Source: Escherichia coli
GTDB lineage: Bacteria > Pseudomonadota > Gammaproteobacteria > Enterobacterales > Enterobacteriaceae
Assembly (NCBI RefSeq): GCF_013122565.1
Contig: NZ_CP053258.1
Direction: 5' to 3' (one strand)
Length of the DNA stretch: 64,000 nucleotides
Positions 7,169 to 63,238 of the stretch are shown one piece after another. How positions within the stretch are numbered: the first letter of the stretch is position 1; every line of letters begins with the position of its first letter. Made by a program: the position numbers and the translations under genes. The notes under the pieces were generated by a model, which worked only from the letters and a program-made list of their open reading frames with translations, was not told the origin of the DNA and ran no database searches.

Positions 7169-8110
7169 ATGGAAAAGAGAAAAATTATTCTGGATTGTGA
7201 TCCGGGTCATGATGATGCTATTGCTATAATGATGGCGGCGAAACATCCGGCAATAGATTTATTAGGCATCACTATTGTAGCGGGTAATCAGACGCTTGAT
7301 AAAACATTAATTAATGGCCTGAATGTTTGCCAGAAACTGGAGATTAATGTTCCGGTTTATGCGGGGATGCCACAACCCATTATGCGGCAACAAATCGTTG
7401 CCGATAATATTCACGGTGATACCGGACTGGATGGCCCGGTATTCGAGCCGCTGACCCGCCAGGCAGAAAGCACTCATGCGGTGAAATACATCATTGATAC
7501 CCTGATGGCAAGCGATGGCGATATCACTCTGGTGCCGGTTGGTCCGCTTTCAAATATCGCGGTGGCAATGCGTATGCAACCCGCGATCCTGCCCAAAATC
7601 CGTGAAATTGTGCTAATGGGCGGCGCTTACGGTACAGGCAACTTCACGCCATCTGCCGAGTTCAACATCTTTGCTGACCCGGAAGCCGCACGCGTGGTGT
7701 TCACCTCCGGCGTTCCATTAGTGATGATGGGCCTCGATCTTACCAACCAGACCGTTTGCACCCCGGACGTGATTGCACGAATGGAAAGGGCAGGCGGCCC
7801 TGCCGGAGAGCTGTTCAGCGACATCATGAACTTCACTCTCAAAACCCAGTTCGAAAACTACGGCCTGGCTGGCGGCCCGGTGCACGACGCCACCTGCATC
7901 GGTTATCTGATTAACCCTGATGGCATTAAAACCCAGGAGATGTACGTCGAAGTGGACGTCAACAGTGGCCCTTGCTATGGGCGTACCGTCTGCGACGAGC
8001 TGGGCGTTCTTGGCAAGCCCGCTAATACCAAAGTCGGCATCACTATTGATACCGACTGGTTCTGGGGCTTAGTCGAAGAGTGCGTGCGCGGCTACATCAA
8101 AACCCATTAA
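7169..8110 (+). CDS. rihB: Pyrimidine-specific ribonucleoside hydrolase
   Basis: 313-aa ORF with N-terminal DCDPGHDD nucleoside-hydrolase motif; matches RihB/YeiK. Confidence 0.93.
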
Positions 8111-35754: not shown

Positions 35755-35956
35755 TTAATTCGTAAAACGTGCTACCGATCACATTAAGAAATCAGCGCTT
35801 ATTTTTTCGCTCCCCGGTATTACGCAATGAGCAGCGAACTCAGGCATACATCAAGCATAGAGAGGGATTGCAGTTTGCAGCAATCCCTCTTTGCAGACCT
35901 TTAATCCGCTGACCATCGGCGCTAACATAGCGCCTCATTTTTTTGCGGGTGATGAT

Positions 35957-36907
35957 ATGCGTGTGTTACTGGCACCGATGGAGGGAGTGCTTGACTCTCT
36001 GGTGCGTGAATTGCTGACCGAAGTTAACGACTACGATCTGTGCATCACCGAGTTCGTCCGCGTGGTGGATCAACTGCTGCCGGTAAAAGTTTTTCATCGC
36101 ATTTGCCCTGAGCTACAAAACGCCAGCCGGACACCATCCGGTACGCTGGTGCGCGTGCAGTTGTTGGGTCAGTTCCCACAATGGCTGGCAGAGAACGCCT
36201 CCCGTGCGGTGGAATTAGGTTCCTGGGGCGTGGATCTCAATTGCGGCTGCCCGTCGAAAACGGTTAACGGTAGCGGCGGCGGCGCGACGTTACTCAAAGA
36301 TCCTGAACTCATCTACCAGGGTGCAAAAGCGATGCGTGAAGCTGTACCGGCGCATTTGCCCGTCAGCGTGAAAGTGCGTCTGGGCTGGGACAGCGGTGAG
36401 AAGAAATTTGAAATCGCCGATGCGGTTCAACAGGCTGGCGCTACGGAGCTGGTGGTGCATGGGCGGACGAAAGAGCAGGGTTACCGCGCGGAGCATATTG
36501 ACTGGCAGGCGATTGGTGAGATTCGCCAGCGGCTGAATATTCCGGTGATTGCCAACGGTGAAATCTGGGACTGGCAGAGCGCGCAACAATGCATGGCGAT
36601 CAGCGGCTGCGACGCAGTGATGATTGGTCGCGGGGCGCTCAATATTCCCAACCTGAGCCGGGTAGTAAAATATAACGAACCGCGAATGCCGTGGCCGGAG
36701 GTGGTTGCTTTGCTGCAAAAATATACCCGTCTGGAAAAGCAGGGCGATACCGGGTTATATCACGTAGCGCGGATTAAACAGTGGTTGAGTTATTTGCGTA
36801 AAGAATACGCTGAAGCAACAGAATTATTTCAGCATGTTCGGGTGTTGAATAATTCCCCTGATATTGCAAGGGCTATTCAGGCAATTGATATCGATAAGCT
36901 GCGATAA
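35957..36907 (+). CDS. dusC: tRNA-dihydrouridine(16) synthase
   Basis: ORF-track starts at a TTG (35891); ATG at 35957 gives [19 protein letters not shown]... matching DusC. Confidence 0.9.
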
Positions 36908-37294
36908 TAGTGGAATCGCAGCTTATCAGAGACAATGAATCGCTTATTCAGCTTCATCATCTTGTTGCGCTCCTTTCATGAACTAAGCCATATATTGCCA
37001 CTGGCGCAAGGAGCGCGCAGGGGGAGGACAATCGCCTCCTCCCCCTGCACCCCCGGGCTCTGGCGAACAAAATCGCCGCTGCGCGGTACCTTCAGCTTAT
37101 CCCCTTCGGCTACCGGGTCGGGCGCGAGGTAACGTCCTTGTAAGACGCGCCCTCAGCCCACATCCATGTGGGCTGTCCCGGCCTTCGGGGAACGCTTCAG
37201 CGATTTTGACGCCACCAACACCGGAGCTGTTTGCAAATCAAGTACACAAAATATCTAGTTCCTGACCTGACAACTTATATGCCATATCTGATTT

Positions 37295-37378
37295 TTAAAA
37301 TATCATCTTAAATACGCCAGTCACCACCAGTAGCCCAATCAGGAAAATAATCAATACAGCCCAGAGTATAATTTTCAT
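37295..37378 (-). CDS. yohP: Small membrane protein YohP (27 aa)
   Basis: Hand translation of the minus strand: MKIILWAVLIIFLIGLLVVTGVFKMIF*, a single hydrophobic helix; below the ORF-track size cut-off; matches YohP from recall. Confidence 0.75.
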   Translation of the reverse strand: MKIILWAVLIIFLIGLLVVTGVFKMIF

Positions 37379-37601
37379 TGGCGTTCCTTTATTTGTGAGT
37401 GCTGAATAAGTATAGGAAAAAACGAAGCCCTTTGCCGTTATCCATAAACGATTAAGATAAATCGGAAGATATCATTCACTTAGTGTATATTTTTCTGGAT
37501 ATGTCGTTTTATTGCTACTGATGTATTGCCACGCGAAACTAAAAAATATATCGCAACACACGGTAATCTCCCCGCACCTTTTCTTACCTGATTATTCCCC
37601 C

Positions 37602-39038
37602 ATGAATCGTGATTCCTTTTATCCAGCCATCGCCTGTTTTCCGCTGTTACTGATGCTGGCCGGATGTGCGCCTATGCATGAAACCCGCCAGGCGTTAAGC
37701 CAGCAAACGCCCGCTGCACAAGTTGACACCGCATTACCCACGGCGCTGAAAAATGGTTGGCCAGACAGCCAATGGTGGCTGGAGTATCACGATAATCAAC
37801 TCACTTCATTAATTAACAATGCACTACAGAACGCACCGGATATGCAGGTGGCTGAACAGCGCATTCAGCTAGCTGAAGCCCAGGCGAAGGCAGTTGCTAC
37901 TCAGGATGGTCCGCAGATCGACTTTTCTGCGGATATGGAGCGGCAAAAAATGTCGGCAGAAGGGCTAATGGGGCCGTTTGCTCTGAACGATCCGGCCGCA
38001 GGTACGACCGGTCCGTGGTACACCAACGGAACTTTTGGCTTAACGGCGGGCTGGCATCTCGATATCTGGGGAAAGAATCGGGCGGAGGTTACTGCCCGCC
38101 TGGGTACGGTTAAAGCACGGGCGGCGGAACGCGAGCAAACCCGCCAATTGCTGGCTGGCAGCGTAGCCCGCCTGTACTGGGAGTGGCAAACCCAGGCGGC
38201 GTTAAACACGGTCTTGCAGCAAATAGAAAAAGAGCAGAACACCATTATCGCGACCGATCGCCAGCTATATCAGAACGGGATTACTTCTTCAGTTGAAGGT
38301 GTGGAAACCGATATTAATGCCAGCAAAACCCGGCAGCAGCTCAACGATGTCGCGGGGAAAATGAAAATTATTGAGGCACGGTTAAGCGCACTTACAAATC
38401 ACCAGACAAAGTCATTGAAGCTTAAACCGGTCGCGTTGCCGAAAGTGGCAAGCCAGCTTCCTGATGAACTGGGGTACTCCTTACTGGCCCGGCGGGCAGA
38501 TTTGCAGGCGGCGCACTGGTACGTTGAGTCATCGTTAAGCACCATTGATGCGGCGAAAGCGGCATTTTATCCTGACATCAACCTGATGGCCTTCCTGCAA
38601 CAGGATGCGTTGCACTTAAGCGATCTGTTCCGTCATTCCGCGCAGCAAATGGGCGTTACGGCAGGCCTGACGCTACCCATTTTCGATAGTGGTCGTCTTA
38701 ACGCAAACCTCGATATCGCAAAAGCCGAAAGCAACTTGTCTATCGCCAGCTACAACAAAGCAGTGGTTGAAGCGGTGAATGACGTGGCGCGGGCAGCCAG
38801 TCAGGTTCAGACACTGGCGGAGAAAAACCAGCATCAGGCGCAAATTGAGCGCGATGCCTTGCGTGTGGTAGGTCTTGCGCAGGCGCGCTTTAACGCGGGC
38901 ATCATTGCTGGTTCCCGTGTCAGCGAAGCCAGAATCCCGGCGCTGCGTGAGCGGGCCAATGGCCTGTTATTGCAAGGGCAGTGGCTGGATGCCTCCATTC
39001 AACTCACTGGTGCGTTGGGCGGGGGTTACAAACGCTGA
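37602..39038 (+). CDS. mdtQ: Outer-membrane efflux lipoprotein (NodT/OprM family), apparently intact
   Basis: ORF-track 37512..39038 is one continuous frame; ATG at 37602 gives MNRDSFYPAIACFPLLLMLAGC (lipobox LAGC); 478 aa. Confidence 0.8.
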   Translation: MNRDSFYPAIACFPLLLMLAGCAPMHETRQALSQQTPAAQVDTALPTALKNGWPDSQWWLEYHDNQLTSLINNALQNAPDMQVAEQRIQLAEAQAKAVATQDGPQIDFSADMERQKMSAEGLMGPFALNDPAAGTTGPWYTNGTFGLTAGWHLDIWGKNRAEVTARLGTVKARAAEREQTRQLLAGSVARLYWEWQTQAALNTVLQQIEKEQNTIIATDRQLYQNGITSSVEGVETDINASKTRQQLNDVAGKMKIIEARLSALTNHQTKSLKLKPVALPKVASQLPDELGYSLLARRADLQAAHWYVESSLSTIDAAKAAFYPDINLMAFLQQDALHLSDLFRHSAQQMGVTAGLTLPIFDSGRLNANLDIAKAESNLSIASYNKAVVEAVNDVARAASQVQTLAEKNQHQAQIERDALRVVGLAQARFNAGIIAGSRVSEARIPALRERANGLLLQGQWLDASIQLTGALGGGYKR

Positions 39039-41305: not shown

Positions 41306-41478
41306 AAAGTTCTTTTGCGTTGCATTGCTGGCGTAAATGTCAGCAATGCAGCATTTCCTCACGATTCTCCTTTGACGATCGCACTTTTTGCTCGTTATGA
41401 TGGCGTCGCTAGCCTCAGTAAATCCTTACTCCGGCGGTGCGCAACCCGTGCGCGTGAACCACTATCTGAATGCTCATC

Positions 41479-42414: not shown

Positions 42415-42595
42415 TAGGCAGGATAAGGCGTTTACGCCGCATCCGGCATTCGGAGCACAATGCCTGATGCGATGTTTGCGCATCTTATCAGGCCTACAAA
42501 CGTGACGCGTCCGTAGGCAGGATAAGGCGTTCACGCCGCATCCGGCATCCGGTGCACGCTGGCTGATAAGATGCTTGCGCATCTTATCAGGACTC
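42415..42595. repeat. BIME/REP cluster between convergent pbpG and dld
   Basis: Two copies of gcaggataaggcgtt(t/c)acgccgcatccggcat plus repeated gcgcatcttatcagg units. Confidence 0.75.
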
Positions 42596-62037: not shown

Positions 62038-62120
62038 ATAAAAAAACCTGCTGGTGAGGCAGGTTCTTTTATTTACTACAGTGACGCTAACTTGCTGATT
62101 GTGCAACATTTCGTACCAAC
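62038..62120 (-). ncRNA. orzO: OrzO-like type I antitoxin sRNA (about 83 nt)
   Basis: Minus-strand promoter (-35 TTGCAA at 62150-55, 17-bp spacer, -10 TATAAT as reverse complement of 62127-32); 5' region complementary to the zorO 5' UTR; ends at hairpin aacctgc-tggtgag-gcaggtt (62045-62065) followed on the minus strand by TTTTTTT. Confidence 0.7.
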
Positions 62121-62645: not shown

Positions 62646-62729
62646 AATAAAAGAACCTGCTGGTGAGGCAGGTTCTTTTATTTACTACTTTGATGTTAAG
62701 TTACTGATAGTGCAACATGGCATCTCAAC
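62646..62729 (-). ncRNA. orzP: OrzP-like type I antitoxin sRNA
   Basis: Same architecture as orzO: -35 TTGCAA 62759-64, -10 reverse complement of 62736-41, hairpin 62654-62674 plus T-run on the minus strand. Confidence 0.65.
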
Positions 62730-63110: not shown

Positions 63111-63238
63111 CTATACTCGTCATACTTCAAGTTGCATGTGCTGCGACTGCGTTCGTTCACCCCGGTCACTTACTTTAGTAAGCTCCTGGGAATTCACTCG
63201 CTTATCGCCTTCCTGCAACTTGAATTATTTAGAGTATA
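63111..63238. repeat. ERIC (IRU) enterobacterial repetitive intergenic consensus element
   Basis: Reverse complement of 63150-63198 reads gtgaattcccaggagcttactaaagtaagtgaccggggtgaacgaac, matching the ERIC core GTGAATCCCCAGGAGCTTACATAAGTAAGTGACTGGGGTGAGCG; terminal inverted repeats ctatactcgtcatacttcaagttgca / tgcaacttgaat...agagtata. Confidence 0.85.

Follow-up and report, generated by a model that had tools for sequence, protein, structure and literature searches.

A GC-rich block between dusC and yohP of Escherichia coli is one copy of a dispersed, structured intergenic repeat related to the TwoAYGGAY motif

The spacer between the convergent genes dusC and yohP of Escherichia coli (assembly GCF_013122565.1, contig NZ_CP053258.1) raises the question of what kind of element its GC-rich and seemingly highly structured central block might be. 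Within the 64,000-nucleotide stretch of this contig that was analysed, hereafter the window, GC content taken per 100 nt is 0.65-0.67 over 37000-37199, as against 0.39-0.41 (36800-36999) and 0.30-0.39 (37200-37549) in the AT-rich flanks. A sequence-only reading had rightly pointed to this composition and to the dusC/yohP setting; it placed the block at 37011-37200, considered it to be neither REP nor ERIC, and offered a different repeat family (RSA or BoxC-like), a structured small RNA (sRNA) or a dusC 3' untranslated region (3' UTR) element as candidates. We show that this block is the middle of a non-coding repeat unit of about 300 bp, other copies of which are scattered over intergenic regions of the Enterobacteriaceae. 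It is a repeat copy and not a locus-specific regulator of dusC, by which the original puzzle is mostly explained. As the overall best explanation we propose a dispersed structured repeat that folds on the minus strand, is a relative of the TwoAYGGAY RNA motif, acts as RNA and binds CsrA, a chain that we regard, taken as a whole, as evenly balanced between right and wrong.

The dispersal of the block is evident from its matches. By BLAST it was found in 5425/5426 complete E. coli genomes, at 1-9 places per genome (median 3), and the suggestion of a different repeat family is thereby confirmed; a unique sRNA, against which the sequence-only reading had itself named many copies genome-wide as the telling outcome, is not compatible with this count. 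Apart from dusC-yohP, E. coli carries the unit at aqpZ-lysO, putP-efeU, copA-ybaP, asmA-yegH and alx-sstT, and K-12 has two intact copies (aqpZ-lysO, dusC-yohP) and two damaged ones (putP-efeU, asmA-yegH). One Klebsiella pneumoniae chromosome holds it at 13 places, and nine enterobacterial genera are represented (Escherichia, Klebsiella, Citrobacter, Enterobacter, Leclercia, Silvania, Kluyvera, Raoultella and Pseudocitrobacter). Searching with a covariance model of the core, R1, gave exactly one copy in the 64-kb window. Among the matches listed, no E. coli genome record has an annotated feature under the match. The repeat family is thus unannotated, and its structure is well supported.

Other origins and a wider range were considered and rejected. 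For a phage origin, no match was found among 50,697 phage records; 'plasmid' matches are mostly mis-filed chromosomes or chromosomal segments; and pattern matches in Actinobacteria, Clostridia and other groups are due to chance. Three short contigs of metagenome-assembled genomes, assigned to Sporobacter termitidis, Desulfacinum and 'Proteobacteria' (L088, L023 and L026; L numbers denote the loci compared), carry Klebsiella-like or E. coli-like copies scoring 119-188 bits, which are probably binning contamination. A K. aerogenes record annotates an 'Uncharacterised protein' coding sequence (CDS) across a unit copy (L007 1732-2313), which is probably a false gene prediction brought about by the high GC content of the repeat.

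The copies share a fold that is best seen on the minus strand. The three main stem-loops of the sequence-only reading are present with perfect arms, as inverted-repeat analysis returned 37017-37028 / 37037-37048 (12 nt), 37154-37163 / 37166-37175 (10 nt) and 37120-37126 / 37146-37152 (7 nt), each 100% complementary. A long-range pairing of 37068-37083 with 37193-37208 had been missed, and the small cccg/cggg hairpin proposed at 37177-37189 is not a conserved pairing, since 37177-37180 pairs with 37114-37117 in 80 copies. The block itself is real but was drawn too narrowly, the conserved unit reaching from about 36940 to 37245. Compared with dinucleotide shuffles, the z value of the 156-nt stretch 37060-37215 is -5.6 for the minus and -4.3 for the plus strand, none of 200 shuffles being as stable, and the 301-nt unit has z values of -5.7 and -5.3, respectively. 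The minimum free energy is -144.7 kcal/mol on the minus and -130.4 kcal/mol on the plus strand, a difference of about 14 kcal/mol in favour of the former.

Comparison between copies shows that this fold is maintained. In a core alignment of 80 distinct copies (A5), on which all copy and pair counts for the core are based, RNAalifold predicted 41 pairs, and compensatory double changes were seen in 27. Once this structure had been slightly completed, to 49 pairs, 94.8% of its cells were paired, against 35-44% when partners are slid by 1-3 columns; changes on both sides occur in 32/49 pairs, and 0/500 shuffles reach the observed values. The closing stems P1/P2 are paired in 99-100% of cells, with double changes in 9/13 pairs, and the small hairpin P2a in 99.7%, with double changes in 3/4. 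P3 contains a tandem G.A, GA/GA in 80/80 copies, of which all 5 flanking pairs covary, and there may be a second tandem G.A. Compensatory changes are seen in 6/8 pairs of the H1 stem and double changes in 8/12 pairs of the H2 stem; these two hairpins lie 1-3 nt apart inside P4, P3 and P2/P1, which together make up about 25 pairs, with covariation. P4 itself is 100% paired yet almost invariant, and hence carries no information on covariation. Beyond the core, H3 has compensatory changes in 6/9 scored pairs across genera, and the H4 arms covary between CGCUCC/GGAGCG and CGUUCAC/GUGAACG (3/7 pairs). Because the H4 arms covary, an apparent Shine-Dalgarno (SD) sequence followed by a start codon (AAGGAG-N8-ATG) near the 3' end of the folding strand, which gave the impression of a riboswitch-like leader with a sequestered ribosome-binding site, was rejected as a stem arm and not a conserved ribosome-binding site: AAGGAG is the H4 3' arm, it reads GGUGAACG in other genera, and the downstream open reading frame (ORF) is unconserved. 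Coordinates of all elements are collected in the table.

Table. Elements of the repeat unit and its neighbours in the window, listed 5' to 3' on the minus (folding, 'RNA-sense') strand, on which the unit is ordered leader, core, H3, H4, tail.
Feature	Coordinates	Strand	Remarks
yohP, 27 aa	37295..37378	-	ORF identical to K-12 YohP; upstream of the unit, on the folding strand
Full repeat unit	36940..37245	-	extent of similarity among non-orthologous copies; ends fuzzy by ~+/-10 nt
5' leader UUGAUUUGCAAACAGCU	37225..37245	-	loosely conserved in E. coli/Kluyvera-type copies
Core domain, TwoAYGGAY-like	37054..37224	-	model R1 188.1 bits, E 1.4e-44
P1 5' arm (37210-37214) and P2 5' arm (37201-37208, AAAAUCGC)	37201..37214	-	partner 37061-37075
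P3 5' arm, invariant GA at 37197-37198	37194..37200	-	pairs with 37090-37096
P4 5' arm, CCGG within GGCCGGGA	37177..37180	-	pairs with 37114-37117
H1 hairpin CAGCCCAC-AUGGAU-GUGGGCUG	37154..37175	-	loop 37162-37167, GGA 37163-37165
H2 hairpin GGGCGCG...UUAC-AAGGAC-GUUA...CGCGCCC	37120..37152	-	GGA 37135-37137
P4 3' arm CCGG	37114..37117	-	with 37177-37180 closes the two-hairpin platform
Conserved unpaired stretch GAAGGGGAUAAG, third conserved GG(A/G)AUAAG motif	37101..37111	-	near-invariant A5 columns
P3 3' arm, invariant GA at 37092-37093	37090..37096	-	pairs with 37194-37200
P2a small hairpin CCGC-GCA-GCGG	37076..37086	-	makes a three-way junction
P1 3' arm (37061-37065) and P2 3' arm (37068-37075, GCGAUUUU)	37061..37075	-	
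H3 hairpin GCAGGGGGAGGA-GGCGAUUG-UCCUCCCCCUGC	37017..37048	-	arms 100% complementary
H4 hairpin, arms GCGCUCCUU (37008-37016) and AAGGAGCGC (36967-36975)	36967..37016	-	variable 32-nt loop
3' tail, CAAC + about 20 nt	36940..36966	-	loosely conserved
dusC	35891..36907	+	convergent with yohP; in this strain, antisense to the folding strand of the unit

The two strands of the unit can be told apart by their wobble pairs. G.U occupies 106 cells on the window minus strand and A.C, which is the plus-strand G.U, only 12, a ratio of about 9:1. Together with the greater stability of the minus-strand fold, this demonstrates that selection preserves that fold as a single strand, and the single strand is most likely RNA. 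The suggestion of a structured sRNA hence survives as far as the hallmarks of structured RNA go, with a covarying fold in 80 copies, but not as a unique molecule. The same figures bear on the idea of a plus-strand RNA serving as dusC 3' UTR, or of a small protein gene. The plus strand does fold well by the z values above, the unit starts about 35 nt past the dusC stop codon, ORFs run through the block (36935..37132 on the plus strand, 65 aa; 36957..37070 on the minus strand, 37 aa), and in one genome record a copy is overlaid by an annotated CDS; however, wobble pairs stand 106:12 in favour of the minus strand, all Rfam matches are confined to that strand, the unit is inverted at the same locus in K-12, 1-nt indels and stem-swapping substitutions between copies would wreck any frame, and the small ORF after the 'SD' reads MMKLNKRF..., MMNQHITTS* or MRD*, or is absent. 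We therefore consider either variant highly improbable. The earlier proposal of a dusC 3' UTR element falls with it, as the folding strand is the minus strand, antisense to dusC and co-oriented with yohP; the unit follows dusC only in K-12, where it is inverted.

The only plausible Rfam match of the window copy is to the TwoAYGGAY RNA motif (RF01731), described in 2010 by Weinberg et al. (PMC2864571) with function unknown. The match covers 37070-37209 on the minus strand with 26.2 bits (E 0.2), the gathering score being 43, and an Rfam scan at that gathering level (43 bits) found no RF01731 in the whole 64-kb window. Four other copies, for which RF01731 is likewise the best and the sole plausible match, scored 30.6-37.2 bits on the same strand, with H1 and H2 aligned to the two hairpins of the model. 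A divergent partner copy from Kluyvera (L123 4104-4167) reached 49.2 bits with RF01731, above 43, and 78.5 bits with R1, and this copy bridges the repeat family and TwoAYGGAY. The likeness extends to architecture: in both, two adjacent terminal hairpins with A-Y/N-GGA-Y loops sit inside a short and then a long closing stem, and the tandem G.A that is present in all 80 aligned copies of the unit has also been reported in the TwoAYGGAY closing stem (PMC4333381). According to the supplement of Weinberg et al. (PMC2864571), the TwoAYGGAY P1 stem is often very long. Both occur in Gammaproteobacteria, and published Psychromonas members have several copies per genome. In contrast, the H2 loop of the unit is mostly ARGGAY (AYGGAY in 16/80, most copies having AGGGAY), the P2a hairpin and its three-way junction are absent from the Rfam consensus, H3 and H4 add about 125 nt of conserved structure beyond the 168-position Rfam model, the unit is GC-rich and the Rfam consensus AT-rich, and no accession in the part of the original alignment consulted is enterobacterial. 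These comparisons show the unit to be a divergent relative of TwoAYGGAY, extended by modules beyond the Rfam model. We class the unit as an enterobacterial branch, with extensions, of structured repeats of the TwoAYGGAY type. It is not a formal RF01731 member, since the window copy stays below the gathering score and its second loop, AAGGAC, departs from AYGGAY.

As to the classical intergenic repeats, the view that the block is not REP or ERIC was well founded: it is a single complex of about 300 bp, and the matches to those families lie elsewhere in the window. REP-derived naRNA4 has two matches at 42417-42593 (+), at about 42.4 kb and outside the block, and the core pattern of ERIC, a 127-bp unit, matched the window (<=3 mismatches allowed) only at an ERIC/IRU-like site, 63176-63197 (+), with 3 mismatches. 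The BoxC-like label was less fortunate, as the sequences near the unit that we take to be BoxC-type are a separate element, adjoining or replacing the unit at other loci. With REP/BIME, ERIC (IRU), BoxC and RSA the unit shares an extragenic, dispersed, palindromic and strain-polymorphic character and an enrichment after genes, and it interchanges with BIME/BoxC-type cassettes in the same spacer; unlike REP (about 35 bp) and BoxC (56 bp), it is far longer and more elaborate. RSA, given in PMC5172473 as a repeat of 150/151 bp with 6 copies in K-12, comes close to the unit's core in length and could be the same repeat, whereas its 6 listed copies are not an obvious fit to the 2 intact and 2 damaged copies found here, the two being compared by description only. 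No published text containing the hairpin sequence was found.

A possible role for the fold is indicated by its two loops. Both match WCANGGANGW, at 37160-37169 (-) in H1 and 37132-37141 (-) in H2; the pattern has 6 matches in the 64 kb, and these two lie on the same strand, 28 nt apart. The loops stay C-A-N-G-G-A-Y-G (CANGGANG) in 79 (H1) and 78 (H2) of 80 copies while their stems vary, and the H1 loop, AUGGAU in the window, fits AYGGAY in 72/80. Such change in the stems combined with constancy of the loops is the signature of sequence-specific loop recognition. For comparison, RsmE has the consensus A/UCANGGANGU/A, the repeats of CsrB read CAGGA(U/C/A)G, and systematic evolution of ligands by exponential enrichment (SELEX) gave RUACARGGAUGU; a site spacing of 28 nt lies within the range that one CsrA dimer bridges. 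Both window loops are exact fits to the CsrA/RsmE consensus A/UCANGGANGU/A. TwoAYGGAY has independently been proposed as a CsrA-binding RNA (PMC4333381). The conservation of the loops, their fit to the consensus and this proposal lead us to favour a CsrA-clamping RNA module. We tentatively suggest, with the balance somewhat against it, that the two GGA hexaloops, held 28 nt apart on a rigid platform, may together bind one CsrA dimer, in which case each transcribed copy would be a small CsrA decoy, or a tether placing CsrA on its host transcript. Because the units are parts of different transcripts, and strains differ in their number and orientation, one might go further and envisage a family of RNAs of about 300 nt, each clamping one CsrA dimer, as a strain-variable layer of the Csr system made of local tethers or a distributed sponge; this extension we consider unlikely. 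The parallel with CsrB, CsrC and RsmZ lies in GGA being placed in hairpin loops in a C-A-N-GGA-N-G context. The differences are that conserved GGA sites number only 2-3 per molecule in the unit and about 9-22 in these sRNAs, that the unit is multi-copy, of variable orientation and without recognised promoter or terminator, and that its binding is predicted only; no Rfam match to CsrB or CsrC occurs in the window.

That the folded molecule is RNA we hold to be somewhat more likely than not. In this strain it would be made by read-through from yohP, because the unit starts about 50 nt past the yohP stop codon on the same strand and a simple scan found no terminator-like site in between, and the unit would therefore form the yohP 3' UTR. 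The yohP literature contained nothing on the yohP 3' region. Alternatively, the unit could be a free-standing sRNA gene with its own promoter, duplicated as sibling sRNAs. In Citrobacter, Kluyvera and Enterobacter, units of two divergent subtypes, about 69% identical, are paired in inverted orientation, with an AT-rich spacer of about 80 nt shared between their 5' ends (L008 1986-2405; L041 711-1130; likewise L099, L100, L113, L024, L025, L123 and L057), an arrangement like that of divergent promoters; the dusC-yohP spacer of C. youngae contains one of these pairs, and divergent 'type 2' partner copies were not found in E. coli. The short leader upstream of the core is also conserved between non-orthologous copies, and the antisense placement at aqpZ-lysO, copA-ybaP and putP-efeU would need a promoter of its own. 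Against this, simple and weak scans of four loci (the window, aqpZ-lysO and two paired loci) gave no convincing sigma-70-like promoter and no intrinsic terminator on the folding strand, and the leader is too short for -35 plus -10, so that a separate sRNA gene appears improbable.

A further alternative is a REP-like mRNA 3'-end element, whose hairpins, on either transcribed strand, would block 3' exonucleases or separate dusC from yohP. Both strands indeed fold far better than shuffles, and the family prefers gene 3' ends and convergent spacers: of 60 spacers 24 are convergent, 32 co-directional and 4 divergent, in an orientation analysis based on crude ORF calls in which small genes such as yohP are missed. 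In strains without the unit, BIME or BoxC-type elements are found in the copA-ybaP and sstT-alx spacers, and no other yohP terminator is visible. A mere barrier, however, needs no invariant loops, no invariant tandem G.A and no 9:1 wobble strand bias; none of the hairpins has a U-tract after it, and the terminator scan gave no site; and some 300 nt with a three-way junction are far more elaborate than REP. We give this explanation no more credit than that of a free-standing sRNA gene.

Several observations weigh against a transcribed, CsrA-binding RNA, in addition to the sub-threshold RF01731 score and AAGGAC loop of the window copy and the empty promoter and terminator scans of the window and aqpZ-lysO. 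At aqpZ-lysO, copA-ybaP and putP-efeU, where the genes are co-directional, the folding strand is antisense to both neighbours, and read-through can therefore not produce it there; across genera, sense and antisense placements (by the same crude calls) number 16:16. It should be noted that G.T wobbles stabilise DNA hairpins too, and the strand asymmetry is thus equally in line with single-stranded DNA. In E. coli CsrA crosslinking and immunoprecipitation (CLIP; PMC5694010), the gene-level tables list dusC, ybjE and efeU as unbound, intergenic repeats lying outside these tables. K-12 tolerates damaged copies at putP-efeU and asmA-yegH, and the slow evolution of orthologous copies described below could stem from gene conversion between paralogues and not from host-level selection.

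The main rival is accordingly a selfish, non-autonomous mobile DNA without host function, whose hairpins are recognised in single-stranded DNA by a trans-acting enzyme. REP sequences are recognised by RAYT and IS200/IS605 ends by TnpA. The GGA loops would in this case be a protein site on DNA, and their likeness to CsrA sites coincidental. We find this rather unlikely, although much in the distribution of the unit speaks for it. Copies number 1 to 13 per genome and lie between genes at numerous unrelated loci (no fewer than about 27 flank contexts, in a clustering that over-merged as flanks hold other repeats), in either orientation, some of them incomplete or decayed. Divergent, promoter-bearing spacers are avoided (4/60, against 24 convergent), no promoter was found, the strand asymmetry fits a single-stranded DNA intermediate as well as RNA, and the closing stem P1/P2 resembles terminal inverted repeats. 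Orientation even differs at a single locus. In K-12, dusC-yohP (L001 2566-2939 versus window 36900-37300) carries the unit inverted, from a different subfamily and 89% identical to the window copy, and the two alleles differ over the entire spacer and in the final dusC codons (…DIDKLR* versus …DIEKL*). At asmA-yegH (L133 1480-1930, L134 866-1324, L132 1480-1752), orientations are opposite in Ecol_542 and MB19, and K-12 retains no more than a truncated 3' half of the unit. In MB19 and L029 the unit lies between inverted REP sequences, recombination between which could allow its inversion.

Other observations weigh against such an element. Other intergenic elements replace the unit in strains at several loci: at copA-ybaP (L130 1560-2400 versus L004 2330-2830) and sstT-alx (L135/L136 versus L009 1700-2420) the unit allele alternates with alleles containing ybaQ plus a BIME cluster, or BoxC-like elements. 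At copA-ybaP, sstT-alx and dusC-yohP the whole spacer differs between alleles, which amounts to cassette exchange and not precise insertion, and no clean empty site or target-site duplication was seen at copA-ybaP, asmA-yegH or sstT-alx. At putP-efeU in K-12 (L131 1900-2000 versus L003 2400-2720) the core is cleanly deleted between short CTGC repeats with the outer parts intact, and the same deletion is present on a large plasmid carrying that chromosomal segment. No transposase or parent element accompanies the unit in about 130 loci, the sole insertion sequence being one inserted into a copy. Relative to replication, orientation is not consistent (3:2) at five E. coli loci, as judged from K-12 map positions. 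Like miniature inverted-repeat transposable elements (MITEs), IS200/IS605 derivatives and REP-RAYT systems, the unit is non-coding, a few hundred bp long and of variable copy number, with inverted-repeat-like ends (P1/P2) and strand-specific hairpins; it differs from them in having no target-site duplication, clean empty site or cognate transposase that we could find, and in that its internal hairpins covary, which conservation of terminal repeats alone would not demand. In the past the family may well have been an intergenic cassette that spread by mobility or recombination, and many of the present copies would be relics.

Conservation at dusC-yohP also speaks against purely selfish DNA. Orthologous copies are kept across Escherichia species, and the dusC-yohP spacer of Citrobacter is occupied as well. 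The orthologous dusC-yohP copies are 97.7% and 92.4% identical, against 83.4% and 86.4% for third codon positions of dusC, and hence evolve more slowly than neighbouring synonymous sites; the differences between them fall on unpaired sites or are compensatory. This pattern would favour constraint at the locus.

The two readings would have different consequences. If the fold is a CsrA-binding RNA, the best-studied bacterium would hold an unannotated, conserved class of structured RNA feeding a global regulator; Enterobacteriaceae including K-12 would carry an unrecognised, extended GC-rich branch of TwoAYGGAY, and the orphan motif would gain its first function. As RNA, a motif orphaned since 2010 would become experimentally tractable in K-12, where only two copies are intact. 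If instead the unit is a selfish hairpin element, it would constitute a further family of enterobacterial intergenic repeats, whose inversions and cassette swaps between strains add spacer polymorphism and can mislead the prediction of sRNAs and ORFs.

Some observations concern the surroundings of the unit. In Enterobacter, Leclercia and Silvania a BoxC-like palindrome, CCCTCACCCTAACCCTCTCCCC…GGGGAGAGGG, lies directly 3' of the unit (L033, L037, L068, L073, L090 and L107-L109), which suggests that the two families travel or accumulate together. One Enterobacter copy (L036 ~7236-7371) is interrupted in its H3 loop by an IS3-family-like insertion, of which the orfA start is visible. In the window, the stop codon of dusC lies within an inverted repeat with perfect 13-bp arms, GATAAGCTGCGAT / ATCGCAGCTTATC (36893-36927); this repeat has no T-run after it on either strand and is absent from K-12.

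Elsewhere in the window, a Peptidase-S11 RNA motif match lies at 41394-41474 (+) with 72.8 bits; this motif, the naRNA4 matches and the ERIC/IRU-like core are ordinary known elements, unrelated to the block. Two OrzO/OrzP antitoxin RNA matches at 62040-62113 and 62649-62722 (-), scoring 89-90 bits, indicate a tandem zor-orz type I toxin-antitoxin locus, which to our knowledge is absent from K-12. Finally, mdtQ (yohG), a pseudogene in the K-12 annotation, has an intact frame at 37512-39038, where the ORF comprises 508 aa and its N-terminus is lipoprotein-like.

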